Part shown: in pieces, positions 7,628 through 54,696 of the stretch | How the letters are laid out: every line of letters begins with the position of its first letter | How positions within the stretch are numbered: position 1 is the first letter of the stretch | Virus record (IMG/VR): IMGVR_UViG_3300021090_000015 | Coordinates: 1,782 to 65,781 of that record | Origin: a virus | Length of the DNA: 64,000 nucleotides | Reading direction: 5' to 3' (one strand) | Program-made: the position numbers and the translations under genes | Notes under the pieces: model-generated | Told to the model about the DNA's origin: nothing | Seen by the model: only the letters and a program-made list of their open reading frames with translations | Databases searched by the model: none

Positions 7628-8476
7628 TCAGACATGCGGCGCAGGATTTTCACCCAACAAATGATCGACAATCAGGTACTTTCTGACCTGTTCAAGCCGG
7701 AGTGTGCGGGTGTAGCGCTTGATCATGTCGGAGGATTTCCAACGTCCCATTTCCATCAGGCTGCGCTCGGATGCCCCATTCAGGACACCCATGACTGCCA
7801 TGGATCGGCGCAGATCGTGGACGGATAGCGTGATGCCGATCCTCCAACCCCATTCGCGAACAATCGAATACAAGCCCTCGGGAGTCAGTCCCTGGCCGGT
7901 CCTGATGTGTGTGAACAGGAAGCCCTGCCCATCGGCGATCCTGCGGAAGGACATCCAACGTGCGATGTGAGCGGCGGTTTGTTCGCCGAAGATGGCAGCC
8001 TCCCACTGGCCGCCCTTGACGATGACTTGCAGGATACGACGCTCCAGATCCGTGTCGGCTTGTTGCAGCCTACAGATTTCCGATTCACGCAGTCCGGTAT
8101 CGAGGGCGAGTGAACAGATGGCGAGGTCGCGGGCGCCCTTGGGATCATAGGGGTCGAAGGATGCCAATAGTTTGAGAGCGATTTCGGGGGAGAGCGAACG
8201 CTGCGGTTTTCCCTGAATGCGTTTGATTTTGGCGGTGAGCGCCGGATGAGAGCGTCCATATTTCCAGGCAAGATATTTTTGTGTGGCTGCCAGTGCGAGA
8301 CACTGGCGCGCATTCCCCCACCCGCTTTGATCCAATATTTTCAATAATTCCGGAGCCGTCATGTTGACCAGATCCTGGCTCCTGGTCAACACGCGGCTCA
8401 GGATGTCCTGATACGTCCGCCTGGTAGAGGCGGCATAAGGGAAGGATGCAAGGAAGTTCGATAGATCGATTTTCAT
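7628..8476 (-). CDS. int: Phage tyrosine integrase
   Basis: TGLRESE, VKGG, HDLRR, MGRW, RYT catalytic residues; adjacent to att. Confidence 0.9.
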   Translation of the reverse strand: MKIDLSNFLASFPYAASTRRTYQDILSRVLTRSQDLVNMTAPELLKILDQSGWGNARQCLALAATQKYLAWKYGRSHPALTAKIKRIQGKPQRSLSPEIALKLLASFDPYDPKGARDLAICSLALDTGLRESEICRLQQADTDLERRILQVIVKGGQWEAAIFGEQTAAHIARWMSFRRIADGQGFLFTHIRTGQGLTPEGLYSIVREWGWRIGITLSVHDLRRSMAVMGVLNGASERSLMEMGRWKSSDMIKRYTRTLRLEQVRKYLIVDHLLGENPAPHV

Positions 8477-10519: not shown

Positions 10520-11299
10520 ATGCACAGTAGTCAATTCGAAAATCCCCTTAGTTTATTGAGGCAGTTGAAAGGTGCTCCGATCTCTGTCCTTTTGGCTTGT
10601 TACTGGGTTCGCCAAGCCGTCTCCCATCACTGGCTGGCGGAGCAGACTGGATACAGTGATTATGCAGTTACCAGGGCGCTTGCTTATTTGACAGAGCAAA
10701 ATTTCTTAGCACGTGTCACCGGTGGGTGGATGATCACGGTAGATGCCATTCAATTGCCACTAATGGCGGTGCTTCCTACTGGGGAAGATTTCGACAGTCT
10801 TGGATCGAAAATCGCGTTTTCCGCGATTTTCGATCCTGATGTTGTTGTTAATGATGAATCAGAAGAGAGTCAAAAAAATAAGTCAACATCATTAACAAAC
10901 AGAGCCAAAAATCGCGTAAAACGCGATTTTCAAAACAAGATTGTATCCGTTCAGACCATCGTGAAGGATCCGGACGAGACCAAGGCGTGCCTGGCGGCGC
11001 TGCGTGCGGCGGGGATCCATGGTCAGAAGGCTGAGAAGATCGCCCAGGACCATCACATCACGGTCGAGGATATCCATGCGCATGCGCTGGGTGTGCAAAA
11101 TGAGTTATGGGATAACCCGCAGGGCATGATGATCTATCGGCTGCTCAATCACGTACCGCCGCCCGAGATGCAGGAGAATGGTCACGTAGTGGGGTGCAGG
11201 TGCGAAGAGTGTCAGCTTTCGAGTTTGGGCAGGCGCTATAGCAACAGTAAGTTTGATCAGATTCTGCGCGGGTCAGACGATGAAAGCGAGGAAGCATGA
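10520..11299 (+). CDS. Putative replication initiator (N-terminal wHTH)
   Basis: HTH-like N-terminus, internal palindromic repeats, C-terminal ENGH..C.CE.C shared with 48684..49652. Confidence 0.6.
   Translation: MHSSQFENPLSLLRQLKGAPISVLLACYWVRQAVSHHWLAEQTGYSDYAVTRALAYLTEQNFLARVTGGWMITVDAIQLPLMAVLPTGEDFDSLGSKIAFSAIFDPDVVVNDESEESQKNKSTSLTNRAKNRVKRDFQNKIVSVQTIVKDPDETKACLAALRAAGIHGQKAEKIAQDHHITVEDIHAHALGVQNELWDNPQGMMIYRLLNHVPPPEMQENGHVVGCRCEECQLSSLGRRYSNSKFDQILRGSDDESEEA
10802..10930. repeat. Putative origin: two AAAATCGCG palindromes flanking an AT-rich inverted repeat
   Basis: GGATCGAAAATCGCG-5-CGCGATTTTCGATCC and AAAATCGCGT-3-ACGCGATTTT inside the rep-like gene. Confidence 0.55.
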
Positions 11300-11688
11300 A
11301 AAAAGTAACTCTGTTTTTGCTCGTGTTGATCGTGACGAGTCTGGCGTGTTTGACGACTGCAGAGCCGATGGCGACGTATCCTCCGGATCCGACAGAAGTG
11401 ATATCACTGCATCCGAAGATAGCGGACACTGCGACGAGTCGTCCGGTGACGGAGATGGCCGTCACGCCGGCGCCGGTTTGTGCGGTGGTGATCGCGGTCA
11501 AAGCTGTGCACCTGCGCATCGATGCGAATGAGCATGCGCAAATTTTGACCTGGCTGCTGAGTGGGGATGTGGTGCGGGTGATCAACACGTCGAATGCGGC
11601 CTGGTGGAAGATCGAACACGATGGATTGACCGGATATGTACGGTCGATGTATCTCGAGAAAGGAGATTGCGAAAATGAAAACCCGTAG
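11296..11688 (+). CDS. SH3b-domain lipoprotein (homolog 48264..48653)
   Basis: Signal peptide ending LAC; C-terminal LR...I...L..GD.V.V...WW.I...G..GYVRSMYL. Confidence 0.75.
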   Translation: MKKVTLFLLVLIVTSLACLTTAEPMATYPPDPTEVISLHPKIADTATSRPVTEMAVTPAPVCAVVIAVKAVHLRIDANEHAQILTWLLSGDVVRVINTSNAAWWKIEHDGLTGYVRSMYLEKGDCENENP

Positions 11689-11899
11689 TGTGGTGCTCAC
11701 GCGTGCTCACCGCCTGGCGAAGAGGCCGGTGGAGGATATGCTGAGCATCTTATTGAGTTTCGGATCACGCATAGACTTGCGTGTGCTGGGGGCAGGGCTG
11801 GCGATCTGCAGGACGCGAGGGGCGAAGGCGAAGGCGAGGATACTGGCGCGCAAGATCAGGCAGATGAGGCAGCAGGCCAGTAAGCATGAAAAGCGATAG
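11675..11899 (+). CDS. Basic hypothetical protein (homolog 50032..50283)
   Basis: RAHRLA..P...DLRVLGAG.AICR shared. Confidence 0.65.
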   Translation: MKTRSVVLTRAHRLAKRPVEDMLSILLSFGSRIDLRVLGAGLAICRTRGAKAKARILARKIRQMRQQASKHEKR

Positions 11900-11939
11900 G
11901 TAAAAGTTTCACGAAGAAAAAATCAGGAAAGAGGACAGC

Positions 11940-12116
11940 ATGTTTAGAAAAATATTTGACTTCAATCAAACCATCAGGAACATTTCCTTCCGGGAAATGC
12001 AGGCACGCCTTGACAGGGATCGGCGACAGTCGGATCGGTTCTTCAAAGTTTTGCTTTGGGTGGCCGTGTATGGAATGGCTGCCCTGGTCGTTGCCAGATT
12101 GCTGATGAGCAGATAA
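11940..12116 (+). CDS. Small protein with C-terminal TM helix
   Basis: 58 aa, GAGG RBS. Confidence 0.45.
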   Translation: MFRKIFDFNQTIRNISFREMQARLDRDRRQSDRFFKVLLWVAVYGMAALVVARLLMSR

Positions 12117-12179
12117 CGAAGGCTTTTACCACCAAGTGTCACCAAGGATCACGAAGGAAAAATCAAGAAAGGATTTGCG

Positions 12180-12410
12180 ATGCATGACATACCGACATTT
12201 CACTTCATACCCGAGATGGTCCATTTGCTGATGTGGTTCGATGATGTACCTGATGCGGGCGATCCGGCGTGCATTTGTTCGCTGTGCAAAAAGGTCATCG
12301 TGAAAGGGGAGATGCCGCTGCGGATATTCCGCACCAGGGATCATACCGAGATCCGCCTGCACATCTCGTGCGCGAACAAGATCATTGTGGAATTGGCGGT
12401 GAAACCATGA
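12180..12410 (+). CDS. Small Cys/His protein
   Basis: CSLC...LH..C motif. Confidence 0.5.
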   Translation: MHDIPTFHFIPEMVHLLMWFDDVPDAGDPACICSLCKKVIVKGEMPLRIFRTRDHTEIRLHISCANKIIVELAVKP

Positions 12411-12712
12411 ACATCAAATTAACAACGATCCTGCAGAGGCAATTGGATCAGGCCAGGAAGAGCGCAGGCAGGACGATCGTCACCACGCTGGGCAGGGGAT
12501 TACGCATCGAGATCAAAACTGTCCCGGGTGAAATCCATCTGACGTTGAGACGGGAAGGGAATTACCCAAGCCTGACTGAATGGGATACGGTGACGAAACA
12601 TTTTCCGTTCATCCTGGTGCGCGTCATGCCGACACTGGAACAAAGGGGGAATGATTTCACGTTGAGCGCACGCTTCAGCGACACCCCGGATCAAGGTCAA
12701 ACCGATGGTTAG
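12407..12712 (+). CDS. Hypothetical early protein
   Basis: Coupled by ATGA overlap. Confidence 0.5.
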   Translation: MNIKLTTILQRQLDQARKSAGRTIVTTLGRGLRIEIKTVPGEIHLTLRREGNYPSLTEWDTVTKHFPFILVRVMPTLEQRGNDFTLSARFSDTPDQGQTDG

Positions 12713-13205
12713 AACCAGCTTCCGGCTGCGCGTGAGCCGATTTTTTCAGGGTCACGAAAATCCGCCAGTGGTAAGACGTTTTACCACCCCAAGGAACGAT
12801 GCGATGTGTAAATTCAATCCCACGCTACCCGAATTCCGAAAATGGTCTTATTTGCCCACAGGAAGCCCCATGCTGATTATGTCCAAACTCATCCATGAAC
12901 CGAAAGACTTACATTCCAACGCACCGCGGCGGCTGGTGGCTGCCTGGCGCAGGGTGGGATGCAGTGATCGAAAGCTCGCAACTCTGCTCAAAGTGAACCA
13001 TTCTTATGTGTCTCAGTTGTTATGGCGCGGGATCGAGCCGGGGAATCCGGAGATCCGCGTGAAGTTATTTCTTCCGAGGAAGAAGCGCGTGCCGCGTGAG
13101 CCGAAGGTGGAGGAGTTCCCAGGGCAAAAGCGGATCGTCAAGATCATCCGATCGATGCACAGGGAAACGACGCGCACTTTCAAACGATGGAAGAGCGGAG
13201 GTTGA
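12705..13205 (+). CDS. XRE/Cro-like HTH protein (start may be 12870 or 12879)
   Basis: SDRKLATLLKVNHSYVSQLL; stop lies 1 nt before the intI start. Confidence 0.55.
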   Translation: MVRTSFRLRVSRFFQGHENPPVVRRFTTPRNDAMCKFNPTLPEFRKWSYLPTGSPMLIMSKLIHEPKDLHSNAPRRLVAAWRRVGCSDRKLATLLKVNHSYVSQLLWRGIEPGNPEIRVKLFLPRKKRVPREPKVEEFPGQKRIVKIIRSMHRETTRTFKRWKSGG

Positions 13206-13206
13206 T

Positions 13207-14196
13207 GTGGCTGAAAAGAAATTACTCGAGCAAATGGCTGAGAAGATTCGCGTGAAGCATTACAGTCTGAAAACAGAGACTGCTTATGTGGAATGGGCGC
13301 GCCGATATATTTTTTTCCATGGGAAGAGACATCCACGTGAGATGGGGAAAGGTGAGATCGAAGCGTATCTGAACCATCTGGCGAATGTGGGGCGGGTGAG
13401 CGCATCCACGCAAAACCAATGTTTGTATGCTTTGTTGTTTTTATACCGGGAGGTGCTGGGGATCGAGATTGCGAAAGTTGAATCCATCCGTGCGAAGGAA
13501 GGAAAGCATTTGCCGACCGTGTTGAATTATGACGACACTGCCCGCGTGTTGAACTGTGTGGACGGTGAGGTTTTCAATCTCATGGCACGATTGCTGTATG
13601 GCGCTGGAATGCGATTGAGCGAATGTCAGCAATTGCGGATCAAGGATATTGATTTTGGGATGGGAACCATCATGGTGCGCGGAGGCAAGGGGAATAAGGA
13701 CCGCACAGTTCCATTGCCAAAGACTCTGGTCAAGGCATTGATGGATCAGATGAATATTGCCCGAAGTTTTTGGAACATCGATAGACAACGCGGGATGCCC
13801 GGTGTTTTCGTGCCAAATGCACTGGACGTGAAATATCCGAATATCGGATGTGATTGGGGTTGGTTCTGGGTGTTCCCGGCACAGAATTATAGTGTCGATC
13901 CTGTAAGAAAGATTCGGCGCAGGCATCATCAGCATGAGAGCGAGTTGCAGCGTGCAATTCGCTCTGCGGCAATCAAAGCAGGAGTTGCTCAACGCGTATC
14001 CCCGCATACCTTTCGTCATTGCTTTGCAACTCATCTACTCTGGAAAGGATACGACATCCGTACTGTGCAGGATTTGATGGGGCATAATAGCATCAAGACC
14101 ACGATGGTATATTTGCATCTTCTCCACCCAGGGGGATGGAAGGGTGTGGAAAGTCCGCTGGATAATATGCCAGTGGAGAATGTTATCCATCAATAG
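13207..14196 (+). CDS. intI: Integron integrase
   Basis: N-terminal HYS..TE.AY..W.RRYI.FH..RHP...STQNQ...ALLFLY; YGAGMRLSE, GGKG.KDR, HTFRH, LMGH, TMVY; IntI-specific insertion PNAL..KYP...W.W.WVFP...RRHH; GTG start with GGAGG RBS. Confidence 0.93.
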   Translation: MAEKKLLEQMAEKIRVKHYSLKTETAYVEWARRYIFFHGKRHPREMGKGEIEAYLNHLANVGRVSASTQNQCLYALLFLYREVLGIEIAKVESIRAKEGKHLPTVLNYDDTARVLNCVDGEVFNLMARLLYGAGMRLSECQQLRIKDIDFGMGTIMVRGGKGNKDRTVPLPKTLVKALMDQMNIARSFWNIDRQRGMPGVFVPNALDVKYPNIGCDWGWFWVFPAQNYSVDPVRKIRRRHHQHESELQRAIRSAAIKAGVAQRVSPHTFRHCFATHLLWKGYDIRTVQDLMGHNSIKTTMVYLHLLHPGGWKGVESPLDNMPVENVIHQ

Positions 14197-14216
14197 ATGG
14201 ATAAGGATAGTTCGTC
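14183..14216 (+). other. Candidate attI region
   Basis: Perfect inverted repeat TTATCCATC-AATA-GATGGATAA over the intI stop, then first core G|TTCGTC at 14210. Confidence 0.35.
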
Positions 14217-14313
14217 GGACGCTGCGCTCCCCCAAAGTGCGGGGGGCTTGGTCCGACGAATGGGCGAGCGTGAAACGTTGTAGTTCGGCTCTTTGATAGA
14301 AAAGGAGATTAGC

Positions 14314-14571
14314 ATGACAGACGATGAGAAAAAACAGTATGAACTTGCAAGACTAGGTATTGCAAGATTGATGGGTGATGCCAGCGAAGTTGATAAATGG
14401 GCAGAGAAAGTGAGCCAGACCCGCGCCGCCGAACTACAACGTGCAGCCGTCCAATCCGAGCAGAAATGCCCTTTCTGCGATGGTGATGGATACTGGCAAG
14501 AAGCGAATCAAACGTTTTGGTGCGATATGTGCAACGGGACGGGCATTTCTAAACGCTCGGATGGCGGCTGA
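14314..14571 (+). CDS. Cassette 1 ORF with C-terminal CxxCxGxG zinc ribbon
   Basis: AAGGAG RBS; CPFCDGDG...CDMCNGTG lies within attC1. Confidence 0.7.
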   Translation: MTDDEKKQYELARLGIARLMGDASEVDKWAEKVSQTRAAELQRAAVQSEQKCPFCDGDGYWQEANQTFWCDMCNGTGISKRSDGG

Positions 14572-14587
14572 CGCTCGCCCATTCTAC
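14428..14587 (+). repeat. attC1
   Basis: R'' GCCGAAC; arms CAGCCGTCC..ATCCGAGC / GCTCGGAT.GGCGGCTG; R' ATTCTAC. Confidence 0.75.
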
Positions 14588-14607
14588 GACTCTTGAAAGG
14601 AAAGGTT

Positions 14608-14841
14608 ATGAGCAAAGATGAATGGTATGAAAAACTTCGAGAATGGGCGCGCGAAGATGCACGGCTTGGCAAGTTGCCCTTTGCGCTGATGACACCATTG
14701 GCTGAACACCTTGCAAATTATGAAGCCGTAGAACAAAGCGTGCACTTGACGGGGCTTCGCCGTTGTCCCGCCTGCAAAGCCTTGCTCGAAGAAACGAGCG
14801 TCTATTGTGATAACTGCGGGACTGATACGCCCCGCAAGTAA
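14608..14841 (+). CDS. Cassette 2 ORF with C-terminal zinc ribbon
   Basis: CPAC-10-CDNC inside attC2. Confidence 0.7.
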   Translation: MSKDEWYEKLREWAREDARLGKLPFALMTPLAEHLANYEAVEQSVHLTGLRRCPACKALLEETSVYCDNCGTDTPRK

Positions 14842-14856
14842 CGCAAGCCGTTAGCC
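14728..14856 (+). repeat. attC2
   Basis: GTAGAAC-AAAGCGTGCACTTGACGGGGC ... GCCCCGCAAGTAACGCAAGCC-GTTAGCC. Confidence 0.85.
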
Positions 14857-14876
14857 CGCTCTTGAAAGGAAAATTT

Positions 14877-15170
14877 ATGACGAACGAAGAAGCATACAAT
14901 AAATTACTTGCCGAGCGTCCAGTGATTGTTTCGGTAATGTTGCGGGACAAACATCGTTATCACTACCCGGAGAGTTTAGCAGATGCAATCGCCGCATCCA
15001 GCGATCCGCCTGAGTTGGTGTCCCTCATTTTGCAGAGTGCAAAGCATATCTATCAGGGCGGGCTAACAAAGCGTGTAGCGGACTTGTGCGAAAAATGTGG
15101 CTCACCGTGGGAATCGTGGGACGAAATTGCCGCCCCTGATGTTTGCTCTATATGCGGCACAAGCCGCTAA
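14877..15170 (+). CDS. Cassette 3 ORF with C-terminal zinc ribbon
   Basis: CEKC-15-CSIC inside attC3. Confidence 0.7.
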   Translation: MTNEEAYNKLLAERPVIVSVMLRDKHRYHYPESLADAIAASSDPPELVSLILQSAKHIYQGGLTKRVADLCEKCGSPWESWDEIAAPDVCSICGTSR

Positions 15171-15185
15171 CGCGCCCCGTTGGGC
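15061..15185 (+). repeat. attC3
   Basis: GGCTAAC-AAAGCGTGTAGCGGACTTGTGC ... GCACAAGCCGCTAACGCGCCCC-GTTGGGC. Confidence 0.88.
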
Positions 15186-15233
15186 AGACTCGCCCAGAAA
15201 GCAGGTAATATGTTTGTCGAAATGGAGGATGAT

Positions 15234-15584
15234 ATGAGTGATCCACTTGCTGTCTTGCTTACGTGGTCATTTCCTGTGCGCGAAAAGGTTGCCAAAGCGC
15301 TTGAGCCTTTTTGTTATTTTACGGGTTTGCCACAATCAAAAACTCCCTCTGGCGAATTGAGATTTTATAACGCGATAGATAATTCTGATTTGCGAGATAA
15401 AGTTTTCAAGCTCGCTTATGCTACTCAATATGAGTTGGGTTTGCGTAAAGATCATCGTTTGCCAGAGTCGCAAGCAGAGAGTCTTGCAAATGATATTGCC
15501 GCCCAACACCGCTTTCACCAGACGGCAGGCGGGCGCGGCTCTAAAAAATCAAAATTGGTTGTGCCTGCCGCTGGTAAAGCATAA
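15234..15584 (+). CDS. Cassette 4 hypothetical protein
   Basis: GGAGG RBS; reads through attC4. Confidence 0.6.
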   Translation: MSDPLAVLLTWSFPVREKVAKALEPFCYFTGLPQSKTPSGELRFYNAIDNSDLRDKVFKLAYATQYELGLRKDHRLPESQAESLANDIAAQHRFHQTAGGRGSKKSKLVVPAAGKA

Positions 15585-15593
15585 CCATTCGGC
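15501..15593 (+). repeat. attC4
   Basis: GCCCAAC-ACCGCTTTCACCAGACGGCAGGC ... GCCTGCCGCTGGTAAAGCATAACC-ATTCGGC. Confidence 0.8.
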
Positions 15594-15605
15594 ATACAGG
15601 AAAAG

Positions 15606-16412
15606 ATGATCACTCGTCCGATAATGCGCTACCCCGGTGGAAAATACTCTCTGGCAAAATGGGTGATATCCCATTTCCCGGCCCATGAAACCTATGTTGA
15701 ATTATACGGTGGGGCTGCCAGTGTGCTCATGCGCAAGCCGCGTTCAATCGGAGAAGTCTATAACGACTTGAACGGAGATGTGGTGAATGTGTTCCGGGTG
15801 CTGCGCAATCACGAGCAGGCTGCCCAGCTAGCGATGATGTTGGCATTGACGCCATACGCCAACGAAGAATACCGTCTGGCATATGAGCCATGTGACGATC
15901 CAATTGAGCGGGCCCGCCGGATGATATTCCGCTCATTTGCTGGCCACGGATCAGATAGCGTCACCAGGTCACATGCTGGCTTTCGTGGCCATCGAAACAA
16001 AGAGAGTGGCGTAACCGCTGCCCAGGAATGGGCGAGTTTCCCCCGAGAAATAGCAGTATTCACCGCACGTCTGCAGGGTGTTTGCATCGAGCAACGGGAA
16101 GCAATAAAGCTCGTTCCTGTTTTTGATCGCCCTGACACTCTCTATTATGCTGATCCGCCCTATCTCATATCAACCAGGTCAAGCTCCAGCGTCAAATATA
16201 GTTGCGAGATGACCGACGCAGATCATGAACAGCTGGCAGACGTACTCCATCAAGTCAAAGGTATGGTCATTGTAAGCGGCTATCCATCCGAATTGTATGA
16301 TCGTCTTTACGTTGGCTGGCGTTGCATCCCACACGCCCACCGAGCGCAGAACGCCAAGCCCTCAACGGAGTGCCTTTGGTTATCTCCGAATTTTCAAACG
16401 ACATTGTTCTGA
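15606..16412 (+). CDS. Cassette 5: Dam-like (D12 class) N6-adenine DNA methyltransferase
   Basis: MRYPGGK, YVELYGGAASV, EVYND, YADPPY motifs. Confidence 0.88.
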   Translation: MITRPIMRYPGGKYSLAKWVISHFPAHETYVELYGGAASVLMRKPRSIGEVYNDLNGDVVNVFRVLRNHEQAAQLAMMLALTPYANEEYRLAYEPCDDPIERARRMIFRSFAGHGSDSVTRSHAGFRGHRNKESGVTAAQEWASFPREIAVFTARLQGVCIEQREAIKLVPVFDRPDTLYYADPPYLISTRSSSSVKYSCEMTDADHEQLADVLHQVKGMVIVSGYPSELYDRLYVGWRCIPHAHRAQNAKPSTECLWLSPNFQTTLF

Positions 16413-16413
16413 T

Positions 16414-16468
16414 GTCGAACACAGCACGAAGCGGACGAAGTACACGCCGCTTGTGCAAATCGTTGGAA
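16414..16468 (+). repeat. attC5 (short)
   Basis: GTCGAAC-ACAGCACGAAGCGG ... CCGCTTGTGCAAATC-GTTGGAA. Confidence 0.8.
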
Positions 16469-16479
16469 GGACTCTTGCA

Positions 16480-16647
16480 ATGAATGAAAATACTTTTGAT
16501 GGAATTACTTTTCACTCAGATAGTGAGCTAATAAACTTCTTGAAGCAATCGTATTATGCTCACAAATCCACTATTCGCGTTTTGGAAGTTGACCGCGATA
16601 AATATCGGTCCTTCCAACAAAGCGTGCACCCGACAAGGGGTACATGA
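16480..16647 (+). CDS. Cassette 6 hypothetical protein
   Basis: AT-rich 55-aa ORF ending within the left arm of attC6. Confidence 0.5.
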   Translation: MNENTFDGITFHSDSELINFLKQSYYAHKSTIRVLEVDRDKYRSFQQSVHPTRGT

Positions 16648-16760
16648 CACATGTTTTGATAGACGGTGACGAAGAGCGCACCTGTTGGTATTGCTATGAC
16701 TTTGAACCGTAGGGGCATTCTAAGCAGCCCCCGATCTGCTTATCGCGCGCCCCGTTGGGC
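16612..16760 (+). repeat. attC6 (degenerate right arm)
   Basis: TTCCAAC-AAAGCGTGCACCCGAC ... CGCGCGCCCC-GTTGGGC; inner arms pair poorly. Confidence 0.55.
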
Positions 16761-16789
16761 GTATAATTCCCTTAATTTAAGGAGATGCT

Positions 16790-17026
16790 ATGATAACGAA
16801 AAAGGCAAAATTATTGGCTGAAAATTATAGAAAGTCTGGGCAATCACAAGATGATGAAATTTCTTCGTATTCCGATTTAATGGACGAATTGTATAGTAAT
16901 TGTGATCCTACCCTTGATGAATTTTCAGAGTTGATTGGTAGTAGTCCTTCTGAAGAAAAAAAATATTACGAATTTCATTTCAAAAAATCAATGTGGAAGA
17001 AGGTCATATCTGGCGGGCGCAAATAA
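16790..17026 (+). CDS. Cassette 7 hypothetical protein
   Basis: AAGGAG RBS; AT-rich; stops 2 nt before R''. Confidence 0.65.
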   Translation: MITKKAKLLAENYRKSGQSQDDEISSYSDLMDELYSNCDPTLDEFSELIGSSPSEEKKYYEFHFKKSMWKKVISGGRK

Positions 17027-17028
17027 AC

Positions 17029-17154
17029 GCCCAACACCGCTCGCACCTGACCGCCTTTGGCGTGGGTGGGCTGTGGCAATTCCCCTACTTGATCCATTTA
17101 GGCAGAAGTGCCTTCCGCTATACACGGCGGTCAGGTAAAGCAAAACCGTTGGGC
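17029..17154 (+). repeat. attC7
   Basis: GCCCAAC-ACCGCTCGCACCTGACCGCC ... GGCGGTCAGGTAAAGCAAAACC-GTTGGGC. Confidence 0.88.
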
Positions 17155-17177
17155 GCTTCGTGGCGCAAGGAGTGAGT

Positions 17178-17534
17178 ATGGCAAAAGATTACGAAATAAC
17201 AAAATTAGAAATCGCAAAACTCGACATGAAACCAGGTGACACAATCGCTATAAAAATTCTTGGTTCAAGACCATCCGATAGCGAACTCGCACATATTCAT
17301 CGAGTGATAGAGCAAGCCTTGCCAAACGTAAAGGCAATTATTTATAACGAAAATGATATTGAATTGTCAATTGTAAGCAATCAAAAAACAGTCAATCAAA
17401 TTCGTGCCGAGCATGGCTACTCACCACTTCAAAGCGGTAACGTGTATTCCAAAGCGCGCCCAACAAAGCGTGCACTGGACGCGGCTATCGCCTTGAAAAA
17501 TTGGCTGGTTCGGCTATTCACGCCGCGCCAGTAA
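17178..17534 (+). CDS. Cassette 8 hypothetical protein
   Basis: AAGGAG RBS; reads through attC8. Confidence 0.65.
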   Translation: MAKDYEITKLEIAKLDMKPGDTIAIKILGSRPSDSELAHIHRVIEQALPNVKAIIYNENDIELSIVSNQKTVNQIRAEHGYSPLQSGNVYSKARPTKRALDAAIALKNWLVRLFTPRQ

Positions 17535-17549
17535 CGCAAGCCGTTCGGC
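17458..17549 (+). repeat. attC8
   Basis: GCCCAAC-AAAGCGTGCACTGGACGCGGC ... GCCGCGCCAGTAACGCAAGCC-GTTCGGC. Confidence 0.88.
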
Positions 17550-17648
17550 GACGCTGCGCTCCCCCAAAGTGCGGGGGGCTTGGTCGCCGAACGGGGCGCG
17601 GGATGGAATCCCGTTGTCCGGCTCTTTTCGAGTAAATAGGAGTACCTC

Positions 17649-17954
17649 ATGGAATTGACTAATGAGCAAATCAAATCGCTGGCAATGTTCGCTTTAGAAA
17701 TCTTGGATGATTTCCCTGACATCGGAAATTTGGACGGTGGAGATTTGCAAGATATAGCCGAAAGGCACAAAATTCTTGTCCCGCAAATCGTCTACGCTCC
17801 GTGCCATTATGATGGCTGCGCTTGTGCCGAAATGTGTACAGATGATGAATTCACAGCGGGCGTGACTTGCTATCACATTGTTGACTGGCTAGACCGCGTC
17901 GCCGAACAACGGGATGCAATTGCATTGTCCGGGCTCCTTGAATGCGAACCGTAA
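17649..17954 (+). CDS. Cassette 9 Cys-rich hypothetical protein
   Basis: AGGAG RBS; GCCGAAC half-site at 17901. Confidence 0.55.
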   Translation: MELTNEQIKSLAMFALEILDDFPDIGNLDGGDLQDIAERHKILVPQIVYAPCHYDGCACAEMCTDDEFTAGVTCYHIVDWLDRVAEQRDAIALSGLLECEP

Positions 17955-18065
17955 ATGTCACAATGACCGTTCCCGAAGCACCAGCGCAGAAGCGAAAACG
18001 TACTGCAACGTTTTCGCCGCGGCAAAATGGTTTACGGAAAATTGCCCCAAGAGCGATAGGAACAA

Positions 18066-18302
18066 ATGGCGCGAGCAACTTATCGCGCATTGCACGATTG
18101 GCTCAAGGCTCAGTTTGTCGCCGTTGAATTTGGCTTGCTCACTTTTGAAGATGTATTCTTGTCTCATTTCGAATGGGTATTGCCAAATGGATCTGTGCAG
18201 ACTATCAGGCAATTAGTCAAGCCTCGCATTGAAACACGCGGCGAATTTATGCTTGAGGGCGGCGCGTCCAGTGTTGAGGGTGAAGTTGTTGACGAAAACT
18301 AA
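18066..18302 (+). pseudogene. C-terminal part of a conserved-type phage protein; in-frame TAG just upstream
   Basis: RALHDWLKAQ..AVE.GL.TFEDVFL.H..LP.G motif; the frame continues upstream past a TAG 9 nt before the ATG. Confidence 0.4.
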
Positions 18303-18406
18303 CTTGCCGTTGACTGTTTGCTCCGCGTTCCGGGATCGCCCAGCGACGCTGCGCTTCTGTTTTCTGATGTAACAAAAGAGTCTTCAGTGCGTCACGCCTC
18401 AATACT

Positions 18407-18730
18407 ATGTTTAAATCATACAAACGAAAATTCTTCTTATGCACGGGTCAGGCTGTGACTGTTGATCAACTCTCTCAACATCCAAACAGCCATATCATAG
18501 GTGAGTTATCGTATGTGATTGATGAAGGCCGGAAGGTGACTGCATTGGCAGTGTACGAGCTTTCTCTTTTTGTAAGCGATGTACCAGATGAATTTCCGGC
18601 AGTCCGTGTTGAGATCATCGGCGATGCCAGGCGAATCAAGTGTACTTGTTGTGATCATCGCGAACGATGGGAGATCGGTAAGACGGCTTTTATGCAATTA
18701 TTAAAGAGATCCAATTACACTGCGGAATGA
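18407..18730 (+). CDS. Putative late-gene regulator with C-x2-C (homolog 54707..55033)
   Basis: RKF.LCTG..V..D.LS..PNSHIIGEL shared; last gene before late leader. Confidence 0.55.
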   Translation: MFKSYKRKFFLCTGQAVTVDQLSQHPNSHIIGELSYVIDEGRKVTALAVYELSLFVSDVPDEFPAVRVEIIGDARRIKCTCCDHRERWEIGKTAFMQLLKRSNYTAE

Positions 18731-18734
18731 GATG

Positions 18735-18846
18735 TATAATAATCGCCGCACGGAGTACAACCAAATAACCGCAGTCCTGGCGTAGGCTGGGACACCACGG
18801 ATCGGAATGATGCGCCCGATGACTCAATTGAGTCACCGGGCGTTTT
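18735..18846 (+). promoter_or_regulatory. Late promoter, structured leader and terminator (copy 1 of 4)
   Basis: TATAAT..ACAAC..GCAGTCCTGG..GGGAC..GATGC plus hairpin/T-tract; copies at 22276, 55029, 58743. Confidence 0.65.
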
Positions 18847-18880
18847 GATTCCATCCATTATTCAAAAAGGAGAAACTGAA

Positions 18881-19312
18881 ATGCAATCGAAACTTGAAGA
18901 ACTTCTCAAGGCGCTGGGCCTGCCTGTTGGCTTGGCCGCGGTCATTGCCAGTGTTGCTGTCTTCCTCGGTCTTCCGTTGGAGCAAGCCTTTCAACTCTTT
19001 GCTCTATTGACCGGTGTTCCGTTTGTCATTGGGCTCATCATTGATCTACTCAAGCTCGTTGGTGTGGTCACACCTGGCACATCGGGGATATGGTCCGCGG
19101 GTCTCAATCTTGCTGCCATTCTTGGGCTTTCTGTCCTACTCAAGTATGTGCCTGACTTCGATGTCAATACATGGGACGCGCAGATCCTTGAATTAGCAAA
19201 GGCTGTCATCTTGATCATTACTTGGATTGCTCAAATCTTTGGCACCAAGGGAGCGCATCAATTCTATAGCCGCGGCTTGCGCATTGCACAGTTCAGCTTT
19301 GCCAAAGCCTGA
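18881..19312 (+). CDS. Holin-like membrane protein
   Basis: About 4 TM segments; positional equivalent 55149..55466. Confidence 0.5.
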   Translation: MQSKLEELLKALGLPVGLAAVIASVAVFLGLPLEQAFQLFALLTGVPFVIGLIIDLLKLVGVVTPGTSGIWSAGLNLAAILGLSVLLKYVPDFDVNTWDAQILELAKAVILIITWIAQIFGTKGAHQFYSRGLRIAQFSFAKA

Positions 19313-19363
19313 TCAATGACAGAGCGTGGATGGAGAGATCTGTCCATGCTCTGATGGTGATCC

Positions 19364-19702
19364 ATGCCATATGCGTCATTGCGGAAGTGTACCTATCCTG
19401 GGTGTAATGTCCTTGTGAAATCGGGGCGATGTGTTGCTCATCCATCCAATCATGTGGTCCGTGATCCTGATGTCAAGAAGCTATACAATTCTCCACGTTG
19501 GAAGTCCATTCGCATTATGCAGCTCACAGAGTATCCATGGTGTGCCAATTGTCTGCGTAATGGAATTCATGTCCCTGCGATTGAGGTCCATCACACTGAG
19601 CCACACAAAGGCGACCCTGAGAAGTTCTTCAATGGTCCACTTGAATCATTGTGCAAGCCTTGCCATTCATCAGAGACAGCCAAAGAAGTTGGCTGGCATT
19701 GA
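19364..19702 (+). CDS. Terminase-associated HNH endonuclease (HK97 gp74-like)
   Basis: C..PGC...GRC..H; C..C...VHH...H.G...LC..CHS. Confidence 0.85.
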   Translation: MPYASLRKCTYPGCNVLVKSGRCVAHPSNHVVRDPDVKKLYNSPRWKSIRIMQLTEYPWCANCLRNGIHVPAIEVHHTEPHKGDPEKFFNGPLESLCKPCHSSETAKEVGWH

Positions 19703-19710
19703 TCATTACA

Positions 19711-19788
19711 ACCCCCACCAAAAAAAGTTTTTCATGGAGGGCTTAGAACGGCTGTGGCAGGCTTCGCGTGAAAGAGTCCCCGATCAGC
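19711..19788. other. Candidate cos/packaging region
   Basis: Between HNH and terS; CCCCC..AAAAGTTT..TAGAACGG..GTGAAAGAGTCCCC.ATCAGC conserved with 55816-55894. Confidence 0.45.
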
Positions 19789-19882
19789 CAATATATTTTT
19801 GGTGTATGCCTGGGAATTCATTCAGCATTGAGATGGTTCAACCGGCCAGCAGGCCCGCGCATCGGGAGTCTGTGAGCGCGTA

Positions 19883-20344
19883 ATGCCAACACGAGCCGTT
19901 GCAGCGAAAACGATGAAGATCGGCAAGAAGGGCGGAGGAAAACATTGGACCCGAAAAGAGAAACAAGCGCGTGATCAAGCTGCGAAAGATTTCGAGCGCA
20001 ACGATGATGCGAAGATCAAGGCCCCGGTGTGGATTAGTAAAGAGGGATTGAAGATCTGGGATAAGAAACTTGCTGAGATCAAAGGACTCAACGCAAGCAC
20101 TGAATTATTGGACGCGCTCGATAGTGAGATACTCGCTTTGTTCTGTGATGCGGTGGCACATTACAAGAAGATCGCTTTGAAGAATCGATTGAAAATCGAT
20201 GATCACAAACTCATGCAGACGTACATGCTGCGCATCCAGGGATATTCGGAGCGGCTGGGATTTACGCCAGGTGCACGCGCCCGCCTGGTAAAGAAGCGCG
20301 CAGAGGGACCGGAAAAAGATGAGTTCGGGGAGAAGTTTGATTGA
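19883..20344 (+). CDS. terS: Terminase small subunit
   Basis: P.W....W; LGFTP.AR.RL; position before terL. Confidence 0.8.
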   Translation: MPTRAVAAKTMKIGKKGGGKHWTRKEKQARDQAAKDFERNDDAKIKAPVWISKEGLKIWDKKLAEIKGLNASTELLDALDSEILALFCDAVAHYKKIALKNRLKIDDHKLMQTYMLRIQGYSERLGFTPGARARLVKKRAEGPEKDEFGEKFD

Positions 20345-22254
20345 CGCACCCAGCTACACAATACGCGCTCGATGCAGTTGAAGGCAGGATCGTTGTTGGC
20401 CGGTGGGAGAGGCTGACGTGTCTCCGCCATTTGTATGACCTCGCTCGAGCTGGGCAGCTTCCAGGGATACTGGCGAAGCGCGTTGAGAAGGCGACGACTC
20501 GTCCATTGCCGCCGCGCGATCCGGAGTGGCCATGGATCTTCGATGAAGAGCAGGCGAGTTTTGTCGCCATCGAATGGTTCTCGCACCTGGTGCACGTGGA
20601 GGGCGAGCTTGCAGGGCAGCCGATTGAATTAATTCCGGCGCATATGTTCGAGGTCTCGTGCATCTTCGGATGGGTTTCAAAGACCGAGACGATCACACGC
20701 AGCAATGGCAGGGTGGTGGGACTGCGCAGATTCAATACGGTGTTCGATACCGAAGCGCGCAAGAATTCAAAAACAACGCGCGGCTCGGGCGTTGGCTTGT
20801 ATATGCTGGTTGGAGATATGGAGGCTGCACCCGCGGTTTATTGCACGGCAGTGGACCGCTCCCAGGCACGAGTGCTCTATAATTATTCAAAGACAATGGG
20901 GGAAAAGAGCAGGGACATCCGCAGACGATTACGCATTGGCAAGTATGAGATGAATCATCGCGCGCGCGGCGGTGAGATGAAAGCCTTTTCGGGCGAGGTC
21001 AAGAATAAGGATTCATTCAACCCGAGCTGTGCGTTCATCGATGAATACCATGCACATTCCACGAGCAAACTCTTTGACCTGATGTCCACGGCGCAGGGAC
21101 AGCGCGCCCAGCCATTGATCTATACGATCACGACCGCGGGCGATGACGTGGAGAGTTCCTGTTATCAGGAATATCAATATTGCAAATTGATCGTCGAAGG
21201 GTCGGTGAGTCTCAATCCCGATGCAACAAAAAACGAGCGTTACTTCGTGATCATTCGCGAGATGGATGATGGCGATGACGAGCATGATCCCAGGAATTGG
21301 ATCAAGTCAAATCCTTTACGGGCATCGACACCCAAGGGATTGGAGAGATTGAAGCAGCAGCATGATACGGCATTCGGCTCGCAGATCCCGGAGAAGATTC
21401 GCGCGTTCCGAGTGAAGAACCTGAATAAATGGGTGCATGGAAACGAAGCCAGCTATATGGGCGATTACATGGTGGGGGATGGGGTGAAGCCGTCGAAGTG
21501 GGACCAGCTGGCGGTGTCGCGTGAAGCGTTCCTGGAATTGACGCGCGGTCTGTTATGCGTGGTGGGTGTGGACCTGTCGAAGAAGATCGATCTCACCGCG
21601 CTGGCTTATGTCTTCGCGCTGCGGGATGGACGCGTCGCCATCTCTGCACATGGATTCATGCCTGAAGCGGGAGTCAAGCGTCATGAGCAGACGGATAAAA
21701 TCCCGTATCGACACTGGGCGAAAGGTGGATGGTTGACCATCACGGAAGGGGACGTGGTCGATTATGAATCCCTGCAATCGCAGATCGAAGCCATCAACGG
21801 GAAACTATATGCGACCGAGGAAGAACACGAATTGGCAAAGGTGAGACTGCTCGCGATCCATTACGCCGCGCTGAATGGGTGGCAGGTGCACGAGATCTGT
21901 TATGACCCATACAATGCCACACAATTCAAAAACGAGATGGATAAAAAGGGATTCACCACCATTGAGGTACGGCAGACCATGCCAAACTTGAATGAGCCAA
22001 CGAAGACATTTCGCGAGCTGGTGGCCAGCGGCAAACTGGTGCACGATGGATCGCCATTGCTGACCTGGTGCGTGGGGAATGCGCAGGAGATCGTGGACAC
22101 CAAGGAGAACATTATGATCTCGAAAAAGAAGTCGAAGGACACACGCCGCGTGGACCTGCTGGCGGCGGGGATCGATGGTTTGTTCCGGATCGAGCCGCTG
22201 CGCGAGGCAACGAGTTATTCGGATTATGTGAACTCGGATGATTTTGGACTGTAG
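20341..22254 (+). CDS. terL: Terminase large subunit
   Basis: ARKNSKT Walker A, FIDEYH Walker B, GVDLS...D, RVDLLAA nuclease. Confidence 0.93.
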   Translation: MTHPATQYALDAVEGRIVVGRWERLTCLRHLYDLARAGQLPGILAKRVEKATTRPLPPRDPEWPWIFDEEQASFVAIEWFSHLVHVEGELAGQPIELIPAHMFEVSCIFGWVSKTETITRSNGRVVGLRRFNTVFDTEARKNSKTTRGSGVGLYMLVGDMEAAPAVYCTAVDRSQARVLYNYSKTMGEKSRDIRRRLRIGKYEMNHRARGGEMKAFSGEVKNKDSFNPSCAFIDEYHAHSTSKLFDLMSTAQGQRAQPLIYTITTAGDDVESSCYQEYQYCKLIVEGSVSLNPDATKNERYFVIIREMDDGDDEHDPRNWIKSNPLRASTPKGLERLKQQHDTAFGSQIPEKIRAFRVKNLNKWVHGNEASYMGDYMVGDGVKPSKWDQLAVSREAFLELTRGLLCVVGVDLSKKIDLTALAYVFALRDGRVAISAHGFMPEAGVKRHEQTDKIPYRHWAKGGWLTITEGDVVDYESLQSQIEAINGKLYATEEEHELAKVRLLAIHYAALNGWQVHEICYDPYNATQFKNEMDKKGFTTIEVRQTMPNLNEPTKTFRELVASGKLVHDGSPLLTWCVGNAQEIVDTKENIMISKKKSKDTRRVDLLAAGIDGLFRIEPLREATSYSDYVNSDDFGL

Positions 22255-51727: not shown

Positions 51728-52213
51728 ATGTCTCAAAAAACACAAAACTCAGCCTACAGGTACCCCAGGGTATGTCAGAAAGATGTCAGGAAAACGAAAG
51801 TCGGGAGGGCTGACTCTTTGGACGCAGAGCCCCTTTTAATTAACCTGGGGCACTTGGTGGGAAGTCTCTCCACCGGCGGGAAAGTGGCAGCGTACACGCA
51901 GGTCGCGGCGCAACTCTCGGTATTGGCTGGATTAAAAAATGGACATTCATGGGGATGGCGATATGTGGCGAGTGTTCATCGAGGAACGATGCAGCCAAGT
52001 AAAAAATTTGTGCGTGTGCTGATCTTGTTATTACAGAAGATCAGTCCACGGGAAAAGCAATGGTTTTATTTTACACGTCGCCGGTCTGTGGCGGCGGTGT
52101 ATGATAAGTCTATTTTTGTGGAGATGATCACGGGTCAAATGAAGAGCCTGGGATTTAAGTCTGTGACGTTTTCGCGATACATGCAGGTGAAGAATCGAGC
52201 GGTGCATCGATGA
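51728..52213 (+). CDS. Possible HTH protein
   Basis: YTQVAAQLS...WRYVASVHRGTMQPS. Confidence 0.4.
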   Translation: MSQKTQNSAYRYPRVCQKDVRKTKVGRADSLDAEPLLINLGHLVGSLSTGGKVAAYTQVAAQLSVLAGLKNGHSWGWRYVASVHRGTMQPSKKFVRVLILLLQKISPREKQWFYFTRRRSVAAVYDKSIFVEMITGQMKSLGFKSVTFSRYMQVKNRAVHR

Positions 52214-52770
52214 CAAGAAAACCAATTTCGAGAGTGGATAGTGGCAGTACACATGGTTGGTTTGCGCGTGTGTATCGCGCGGAGTGGGTTGGACCGAGGT
52301 CGTTCGCTGATGCACAATATGGCGGGCGAGAGAAAGCGGAAGCGGCTGCCTGGAAGTGGGTCAGGATGGCAGACGAACAACTACCTATGATTCCGCCCAA
52401 GCCAGTGCTTAGAAAAGCTACCATAACGTTGCGATCGGAAAATAAATTACAGGGCGTTCTCCATTATTGGGACGTCTATCTTCCACCGTTGGATGACGAG
52501 ACAACATGGTCACAAAAGTTTTTCTTCCACATGCTGGACGAGAAAGAAAAGCAGAAGGCAAAAGCGGATAGCATTGCTGACGAGCGCAACCAAGTCCTGC
52601 AAAAGATCCATGCCGGAGAATTAGCTGTCTGGTATATGGAGCATGACAGGCTTATGGAGCAGATTTTGAGCATGTGGAACGAAGTGAAAAAGCTCTCGAC
52701 GGAAGCCACCGAGAGTCTTGTCTCTGCAAGAGATGCGCCGGCGGCACAAGAACAGGAGATCCAATCATGA
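52210..52770 (+). CDS. AP2-like DNA-binding protein
   Basis: ISRVD..THGW.ARV...RSF.D..YGG.EKA..AA. Confidence 0.55.
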   Translation: MTRKPISRVDSGSTHGWFARVYRAEWVGPRSFADAQYGGREKAEAAAWKWVRMADEQLPMIPPKPVLRKATITLRSENKLQGVLHYWDVYLPPLDDETTWSQKFFFHMLDEKEKQKAKADSIADERNQVLQKIHAGELAVWYMEHDRLMEQILSMWNEVKKLSTEATESLVSARDAPAAQEQEIQS

Positions 52771-54066: not shown

Positions 54067-54696
54067 ATGACCTACCAAGAACCCAAGACTACTCCTGAAA
54101 CAGAGACGCAGAAACAGCGTATCATCGATCCGCGGTTCGACGAGATCGGCGATCTAAAGAAGCGCATGGCCATCATGGAGCGCATCCAGATCGATACGTC
54201 TCAACGGTTGACTGGCTTCATTGAAGACTGGATGAGGGAGCAGCTCGATCGTAGTGAGACTCAAAATGATCAGGCGGAAACTAACATAGGGGCACTGGAA
54301 GAAGCGTTGGTGGAAATCCGAAAGAAGAGGGAGGAATTAATTCATCAGATTGCCAGGGCGACTGGACCCGATTTTTTATCATTGAAAGTCCTGGATGATA
54401 TTCTCGAAAACAGACAACTCAAAACAACCCAGGAATTGAATGCAGCAAAGAAATCGAAACGACATGCGGAGGAACACGTCAAGTCGTCGAGCCAAAAGCT
54501 GAAAGCGATCAAGATGGGTCCACAGACGGGCGTGCCGCCGTTGCCATCATCTGAGCCAGTCAAGTGGGGATCTGGCGCCTGGTTCAAGCAGGGGATTGGC
54601 ACAGACTTCATCCGTGTCATTGTTCTTATGCTCGGATTGGAGTTGATCCGCAGCGGATTAATTCCGCTCCTGCAACGAGCATTTGGTAATCCATAG
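54067..54696 (+). CDS. Coiled-coil protein with C-terminal TM helix
   Basis: Own promoter TTGCTT..TAGAAT upstream. Confidence 0.6.
   Translation: MTYQEPKTTPETETQKQRIIDPRFDEIGDLKKRMAIMERIQIDTSQRLTGFIEDWMREQLDRSETQNDQAETNIGALEEALVEIRKKREELIHQIARATGPDFLSLKVLDDILENRQLKTTQELNAAKKSKRHAEEHVKSSSQKLKAIKMGPQTGVPPLPSSEPVKWGSGAWFKQGIGTDFIRVIVLMLGLELIRSGLIPLLQRAFGNP

Follow-up and report, generated by a model that had tools for sequence, protein, structure and literature searches.

Can an integron be a working part of a phage genome rather than a passenger in it? This question is raised by a 64,000-nucleotide stretch of the virus record IMGVR_UViG_3300021090_000015 in IMG/VR (positions 1,782 to 65,781 of a 67.7-kb record), which we call the window. 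Here an integron integrase gene (intI), its attachment site (attI) and a row of small gene cassettes bounded by attC recombination sites stand among the genes of unit B, one of several related prophage units stacked in the window. We found that this is very probably a genuine and complete integron and an integral module of the temperate tailed phage that unit B represents, whose host belongs to the Anaerolineae (Chloroflexota). When unit B is set beside its relatives, phages appear to swap small accessory genes by means of the integron.

The argument starts from two adjoining features, the integrase gene and the site that directly follows it.

13207 to 14196, + strand: intI, integron integrase of 329 aa; GGAGG 5 nt ahead of the GTG start; TAG stop at 14194-14196
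14197 to 14212, + strand: attI, ATGGATAAGGATAG followed by TT, abutting the intI stop; crossover between G14210 and T14211

The IntI protein scores 405.5 bits on the NCBIfam model TIGR02249 (cut-off 265) and covers positions 1-315 of its 315, and its scores on the XerC and XerD models lie far under their cut-offs. It aligns to VchIntIA (PDB 2a3v) without a gap over residues 8-320 (E 4.6e-81, 275.8 bits), and this alignment spans the IntI-specific patch at residues 190-250. Because the Xer scores are low and the patch is aligned, the protein neither lacks the IntI insertion nor clusters with XerC or phage integrases, and the identity given to it in a first-pass annotation, which had been made from the sequence alone, is borne out. 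Residues R136, K164, H267, R270, H293 and Y302 are invariant across 17 aligned clade members, the window IntI among them. VchIntIA residues W219, P232, H240 and H241, which contact the extrahelical bases in the 2a3v structure, are retained in the window IntI, and W157 is replaced by R. On the IntI1-type equivalog model NF011946 the protein reaches 349.6 bits against a cut-off of 435, and falls short of the IntI1 type that marks mobile integron classes 1-5. The attI sequence or a close variant of it follows intI in most of the clade loci shown (related loci carry L numbers here), and L021, L022 and L027 diverge more.

Downstream of attI, and on the same strand as intI, we found ten cassettes, of which eight bear genes and two are gene-less.

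14211 to 14277, + strand: cassette 1, gene-less; start TTCGTCGGAC, 30-nt G+C hairpin, R''-like GTCCGACGAAT and a very short attC-like end
14278 to 14581, + strand: cassette 2, 4-Cys zinc-ribbon open reading frame (ORF) 14293/14307-14571; attC 14428-14587, mostly within the ORF
14582 to 14850, + strand: cassette 3, zinc-ribbon ORF 14593/14609-14841; attC 14728-14856, the best site (71-91 bits)
14851 to 15179, + strand: cassette 4, ORF 14862/14878-15170; attC 15061-15185
15180 to 15587, + strand: cassette 5, ORF about 15234-15584; attC 15501-15593, R' ATTCGGC
15588 to 16462, + strand: cassette 6, D12-class N6-adenine DNA methyltransferase 15606-16412; short attC 16414-16468
16463 to 16754, + strand: cassette 7, ORF 16480-16647, 55 aa; long attC 16612-16760, the weakest (27.5 bits on model R2, described below)
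16755 to 17148, + strand: cassette 8, ORF 16790-17026, 78 aa; attC 17029-17154, non-coding
17149 to 17543, + strand: cassette 9, ORF 17160/17178-17534; attC 17458-17549
17544 to 17613, + strand: cassette 10, gene-less, with the hairpin module again; TTCGGCGAC, at its start, pairs with GTCGCCGAA
17614 to 18302, + strand: tail with ORFs 17649-17954 and 18066-18302, without significant attC; weak site at 17898-17936 (about 7 bits)

The eight attC sites all lie within 3.4 kb of intI and, by junction reading and folding, form one structural family. With 3-nt flanks they occupy 14425-14590, 14725-14859, 15058-15188, 15498-15596, 16411-16471, 16609-16763, 17026-17157 and 17455-17552 on the + strand. 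Each site runs from R'' (nnnnAAC) to R' ((G/A)TTnnnn); in between come, in order, a short spacer that stays unpaired, the GCGT/ACGC stem, the L stem, the variable loop and a second spacer. The R''/R' stem is at most 10 bp long, a single extrahelical A marks the top strand of the L stem (a T on the bottom strand), and the L'-R' spacer has the consensus TAACGCAAACC, which contains a built-in TAA. Six of the eight sites, those of cassettes 2 to 5, 7 and 9, lie largely within the 3' ends of ORFs; in five of these six the stop codon is the TAA or TGA of the L'-R' spacer, and in cassettes 2-4 the variable loop of the attC encodes the 4-Cys zinc ribbon. Two R' boxes, at 14581 and 15587, start with A instead of G. 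RNAalifold recovered the same stems independently from the eight window sites, with double changes in 6 of 11 pairs.

To search for further sites we used two covariance models, R1 from the eight window attC and R2 from 49 sites of other loci only. In 14 related loci R1 gave 49 matches at E <= 0.001, all downstream of intI on the intI strand; it found nothing beyond its own eight sites in the 64-kb window and gave no match in eight betaproteobacterial IntI loci. When both strands of the window were searched with R2, exactly the eight window sites were recovered (E 5.6e-13 to 4e-4) and nothing more, so the earlier count of eight attC sites holds. An unfiltered model search of the window added only insignificant extras, at the two mini-cassette ends and at 17898-17936, and Rfam, which has no attC family, gave no match in the window. 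Among the 49 foreign sites, in an alignment that was fitted to the model, pairing holds in 97% of cells and falls to 13-44% when the partner columns are slid; double changes occur in 8 of the 11 pairs. In the window and in every clade locus that gave hits, attC matches lie downstream of intI on the same strand, and the co-oriented layout described in the first pass is what we see.

In an integron, the bases that follow the crossover between G and TT belong to the next cassette; while that cassette was a circular intermediate, they were paired with its R''. Across 46 neighbouring site pairs from 14 arrays, we found that the cassette start is complementary to its own R'' at a mean of 6.0 of 7 positions, with 25 perfect pairs. 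Shuffled pairings gave a mean of 3.30 (standard deviation 0.17, maximum 3.98), and 0 of 10,000 reached the observed value. The seven window pairs score 5-7 of 7. The few pairs that fail have 1-2.8 kb between them, and there a site probably escaped detection or the register was shifted by an indel. This complementarity is independent of the model scores and, as a pattern read from sequence, would be hard to explain except by IntI-type recombination. The parts of the integron are established. A cluster of attC sites without an integrase (CALIN) was considered for the locus and rejected, as intact IntI and attI are present.

The two gene-less cassettes share a 36-mer, identical at 14218-14253 and 17550-17585, that contains the hairpin module. 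In cassette 1, R' is GTTGTAG at 14277, with GTTCGGC at 14283 as an alternative. Their attC-like ends score below significance in the attC models (10.9 bits for cassette 1; 8.8 bits on the - strand and 2.5 bits on the + strand for cassette 10). The 30-nt G+C-rich hairpin mini-cassette is found three times in L003 (11395-11441, 11832-11867 and 13552-13592), and in both the window and L003 the module always directly follows an R' crossover and has covarying flanking stems. In contigs of the source metagenome, from freshwater sediment, depth over the module is several-fold above that of its flanks, and contigs of two sequencing runs show that both the attC arms and the module recur across the community. 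The possibilities for the role of the mini-cassette include a terminator or attenuator, a binding site and a small RNA. A ribosome-binding site precedes each cassette gene by sequence reading. A recurring word, G[GC]CTCTTGAAAGG and variants, stands just past R' and ahead of several cassette start codons (14289-14300, 14590-14603, 14859-14872, 16471-16479 and 17620-17630 in the window); it may be a shared translation-initiation leader or a portion of the IntI recognition site.

Whether the integron belongs to the phage depends on what surrounds it.

7628 to 8476, - strand: phage tyrosine integrase, separate from IntI, near the left end of unit B (phrog_1, 3.6e-23)
12705 to 13205, + strand: final early ORF ahead of intI, 166 aa; TGA stop at 13203-13205, 1 nt before the intI start
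18407 to 18730, + strand: conserved phage gene flanking the integron; counterpart in unit C at 54683
19364 to 22254, + strand: HNH endonuclease, small and large terminase, 3' of the array
23795, 25041 and 26630, after the terminases: portal, protease and major head protein

By self-comparison, the related prophage units are spaced about 36-40 kb apart at 70-77% nucleotide identity, as in tandem polylysogeny, with a self-similarity offset of 36,813 bp at the integrase end of the units. Unit B has its left end near 7.5 kb, and its early genes are followed by the HNH endonuclease, terminase and structural genes, all rightward. Among the stacked units it alone carries the integron, which sits between the early genes and the holin-like, HNH and terminase genes. 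The proteins of units B and C are collinear on both sides of this variable slot: 9433/47143, 10421/48684, 11296/48231 and 11636/50032 on the left, and 18407/54683 followed by HNH, terS and terL in the same order on the right. In unit B the slot holds the integron and in unit C unrelated genes, and here the first-pass annotation was right, as it was in seeing a complete integron within the phage. The integron lies inside the prophage, away from its edge. It had also placed intI 1 nt past the stop of a helix-turn-helix gene on the early-gene strand; the position stands (GTG at 13207), and the helix-turn-helix label is unconfirmed, as the ORF at 12705-13205 has no Pfam or PHROG match. A sedentary chromosomal integron would lie in the chromosome proper and have a long array, and this one is inside a prophage with about ten cassettes. 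ARAGORN found no intact transfer RNA gene within the 64-kb window.

The tandem prophages of the record allow a different origin to be considered, in which a chromosomal integron was captured as host DNA, either from between stacked prophages or by imprecise excision as in Vibrio anguillarum phages, and published phage integrons are mostly so derived (PMC9892861). However, the integron lies 4.7 kb inward from the integrase end of unit B, flanked left and right by phage genes that unit C also has, the same clade of integrases is internal to many unrelated phage backbones (for example at terL/portal), and among the contexts examined for the clade none is chromosomal and non-phage. Capture of host DNA is therefore very improbable. 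The junction between prophages was also considered as the site of the integron and rejected, since the integron is inside unit B with phage genes on both sides. A second role of IntI as the phage integrase was likewise rejected, as the window, L013 and L022 carry integrases separate from IntI.

Misassembly could also have joined intI and its array to a phage, and Logan contigs of the source run do break repeatedly in the array, with depth rising 3-6 fold at repeats. However, source-run contigs span both phage junctions, one covering 11000-13625 (early genes into intI) and the other 17919-20500 (array tail into terS and the start of terL), the flanks of each 36-bp repeat copy are self-complementary as assembled, and at least 15 independent assemblies have the intI-attI-array arrangement inside phages. 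We find an artefact of this kind scarcely credible, and the phage context of the integron is established.

Two side observations concern the slot in unit C. The gene at 52210-52770, which is fixed in this accessory slot without attC, is 44% identical to an attC-bounded cassette of L012 (12153-12614), and a homologue of the neighbouring gene, 51728-52213, lies in L012 upstream of intI.

To place the integrase among its relatives, we compared it with 5.8 billion proteins, among which thousands of IntI relatives were found; identity is 65-88% for the best 120, of which the few with names are Anaerolineales. In GTDB species genomes, every match at 67% or above is from Chloroflexota/Anaerolineae, Pseudomonadota reach 57% at most, and phage genes stand beside intI in the relatives that have flanking sequence. 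In a maximum-likelihood tree, taken without Treponema-type IntI sequences, 15 phage-embedded IntIs form one clade (support 96/93) that is sister to Pseudomonadota IntIs, mostly betaproteobacterial. The relatives at 60-88% identity are one clade, and all contexts examined are phages or prophages of Anaerolineae; these are the IMG/VR loci L002-L008, L343-L351 and L374, the genome contigs L025-L028 and eight long contigs chosen on length as the sole criterion. The clade is established. Cassette sets differ among the relatives.

The position of the integron varies among these phages. In the window, L019, L025, L105 and L351 it follows the early genes and precedes a holin-like gene, HNH and terminase. 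In L002, L006, L019, L026, L028 and L346 it directly follows a homologue of the window gene at 18407. In L003, L004/L005 and L343/L344 it lies between terL and portal, and in L027 intI directly follows terL. In L022-L024 it stands beside a serine recombinase and has about two cassettes. Phages whose large terminase resembles that of the window differ as well: in L343 (terL 66% identical) the integron is between terL and portal, and in L351 (76% identical) it precedes the holin-like gene. The IntIs of L003 and L025 are sisters (100/99 support), yet one integron comes after terL and the other before the holin-like gene; the different genome positions of such close IntIs imply that the platform itself moves. 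We give about even chances to the broader proposal that this IntI branch is resident in phages, with several unrelated Anaerolineae backbones trading promoter-less, probably counter-defence cassettes while the platform relocates between slots.

Beyond the clade, 167 stretches in IMG/VR encode an IntI relative, most of them 41-53% identical and without this attC family. Scans of IMG/VR for exact 14-mers from attI words gave more than 117 matches each, as expected by chance in so large a collection, and were left unused.

The clearest sign of cassette movement comes from closely related phages that differ at attI. L013 and L015, and L014, L016, L017 and L018, encode one and the same IntI protein, which shares 81% identity with the window IntI. 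L013 and L014 are 99.7% identical on either side of a 287-bp insertion of a single cassette, which begins at the TT of attI, after the G, and ends with a full attC; the inserted cassette starts with GTTAGGTGG, which is reverse-complementary to the R'' of that cassette, CCACCTAAC. The alleles with and without this cassette are each found in several independent assemblies. In a second pair, L007 and L008, identity is 99.94% over 11,005 bp, and all similarity ends directly after GGATAGTT. In a third, L348 and L374, it is 99.97% over 8,996 bp; the two part after GATAGTTAG, with only attC arms in common further on. L007 and L013 encode a large terminase, and L013 a portal gene too. Population-level polymorphism at attI in these sister phages is established, and, as the backbones are 99.7-99.97% identical, turnover is recent. 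Divergence at the attI crossover in three backbone pairs supports IntI-mediated insertion in phages, of which it is the expected footprint. Cassettes are also common to different phages, with 2.1 kb at 87% identity in L002 and L003 and 315 nt at 83% in L012 and L019. An apparent match between the first cassette of L348 and the second of L008, which have a 22-nt start in common, found no support in blastn and was dropped.

One large multi-gene cassette occurs in two phage backbones at different positions (L002 12287-15184 and L003 13681-16396); it encodes PAPS-reductase/DUF3440 and ParB-like proteins along with small ORFs, at 93-100% protein identity.

Several observations weigh against a genuine integron that is a module of the phage. 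A second sample, from a different study, holds pieces of the same phage and its cassettes at high identity. No clean rearrangement of the window array was found in the Logan assembled contigs of the two runs, a level of data at which excised circles and alternative orders are invisible; contig joints with 20-30-nt sides at attC arms were set aside as other cassettes of the community and not counted as rearrangement. The order of the cassettes depends on the assembly of short reads, in a region where attC arms recur and 36 bp are repeated exactly. No attC could be detected for the tail ORFs, which may be either decayed cassettes or phage backbone. Most of the contexts that define the clade are metagenome contigs whose viral status comes from gene content. 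The attC models are clade-specific, and R1 was trained on the window sites themselves. Lastly, the promoter and terminator scan of the array region stays at chance level, with no sigma-70-like promoter above chance in or before the array, although promoters of Chloroflexota may not fit the scan.

The array could also be a frozen relic of an integron once active in the lineage, with cassettes that are now fixed accessory genes and an IntI that is idle or otherwise used, for example in dimer resolution. The recurrence of the same cassettes in samples of two studies, the two R' boxes that start with A, the tail ORFs and the absence of any homologue of the window cassettes in the other arrays compared all fit such a relic. 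In contrast, IntI is full length with its catalytic and extrahelical-base-binding residues conserved, the eight window attC score equal to or above the sites of demonstrably varying arrays, the R''/start complementarity of the window has kept its 5-7 of 7, and sister phages vary at attI on nearly identical backbones. We therefore consider a frozen relic unlikely. The earlier proposal that the phage shuffles genes by its own IntI is supported in part, by the three pairs that diverge at attI; in the window phage itself the cassettes are the same in two samples.

What the cassettes carry was searched among 82 ORFs of the arrays. For most cassette ORFs PHROGs and Pfam gave nothing, and identifiable cargo is mostly orphan DNA methyltransferases (PF01555 in three ORFs, PF02086 in two and PF00145 in one). 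In the window, the cassette 6 methyltransferase is Dam-like (PF02086 at 1.5e-16; phrog_56 at 1.3e-63). Other recognisable cargo consists of the pair of PAPS-reductase/DUF3440 and ParB-like proteins, one weak Acb2/Tad1-like protein and the zinc-ribbon mini-proteins. The 25 families listed by PADLOC comprise 24 methyltransferase models, of the MTase_II or orphan MTase type, and mad2, and the listing for these ORFs holds no other kind of defence protein. In the ESM Atlas, cassette proteins 5, 9 and 11 had no usable relative, and DHHA1-like structural rows came from a model with a predicted local distance difference test score of 0.53.

The methyltransferase cargo fits counter-defence without proving it. 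The first-pass annotation had expected anti-defence genes, a role that stays putative with the few proteins that are recognisable, namely the methyltransferases, the PAPS-reductase/ParB pair and the weak Acb2/Tad1 match. An active integron could instead carry cassettes that mainly benefit the lysogen, through superinfection exclusion, defence or lysogenic conversion. The phage is temperate and lies in a stack of related prophages, most cassette proteins have no recognisable family, and two preprints describe bacterial integrons as stores of defence cassettes (bioRxiv 10.1101/2024.07.02.601686 and 10.1101/2024.07.02.601719). In contrast, the array lies within the early and late lytic blocks and runs in their direction, the PADLOC families are restricted as described above, and orphan methyltransferases together with an Acb2/Tad1-like match are typical of phage counter-defence. 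A host-serving cargo is possible, but we doubt it.

Taken together, these data suggest how a phage-owned integron would work. Expression is inferred from the orientation of the cassettes and from the ribosome-binding sites ahead of their genes; timing, cassette source and activity in the window phage are inferred as well. As the last gene of the early rightward block, intI would be transcribed with the early operon, and IntI would be made. Phage replication would provide single-stranded DNA in which attC bottom strands could fold, and IntI would then excise cassettes by attC x attC recombination and insert the circles at attI between G and TT. The promoter-less cassettes would be transcribed by read-through from upstream phage promoters, and new cassettes may come from other phages, either co-resident or co-infecting, whose attC sites belong to this family.

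Integrons are usually regarded as gene-capture devices of bacteria, and the few published phage cases look accidental. If this is true, cassettes would be exchanged between phages during co-infection or polylysogeny in one shared attC dialect, and integrons would be a device of phage evolvability besides a bacterial one. A monophyletic, phage-living IntI branch would make phages owners, beyond carriers, of adaptive gene shuffling, and would supply a mechanism for the quick turnover of small accessory genes in phage 'moron' slots. The cassettes would form a ready catalogue of candidate counter-defence genes, and recombination assays would gain a compact set of IntI, attI and attC from a phylum so far untapped.

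Parts of this system have precedents. No description of a phage-resident IntI lineage was found in the literature searched, and such a lineage appears to be undescribed so far; the novelty claimed in the first pass is smaller, as integrons in phages and the inverted layout were already known. Integron integrases in the same orientation as their cassettes ('inverted') are a known minority and a paraphyletic group, and integrons have been noted in Chloroflexi (Cury et al., 2016; PMC4889954). The window integron shares with these the co-orientation of intI and cassettes and an attI 3' of intI; however, inverted integrons were described in bacterial genomes, and this one is in a phage and has an attI that abuts the stop codon. 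With VchIntIA and the Vibrio chromosomal integron it shares the fold-level family, the gapless alignment and the R, K, H, R, H and Y residues, but the Vibrio integron has hundreds of cassettes as compared to about ten here, and the window integron is phage-borne and inverted. Phage CALINs likewise hold small accessory genes bounded by attC within phage genomes, and the window differs in having intact IntI and attI. Integrons within phages were surveyed by Qi et al. (2023; PMC9892861), who found three complete integrons and one In0 among 10,705 phage genomes. By the authors' account, these came from fragments of Vibrio super-integrons at a prophage edge, from class 1 integrons on P1 and from a Shewanella-type integron in a cryptic prophage with host-type IntI and attI. 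There, too, complete integrons are in temperate phages and DNA methyltransferases are among the cassettes. In contrast, the window IntI belongs to its own clade, which we met only in phages, with its own attI/attC family and internal positions in phage genomes, and near-identical phages of this clade are polymorphic at attI.

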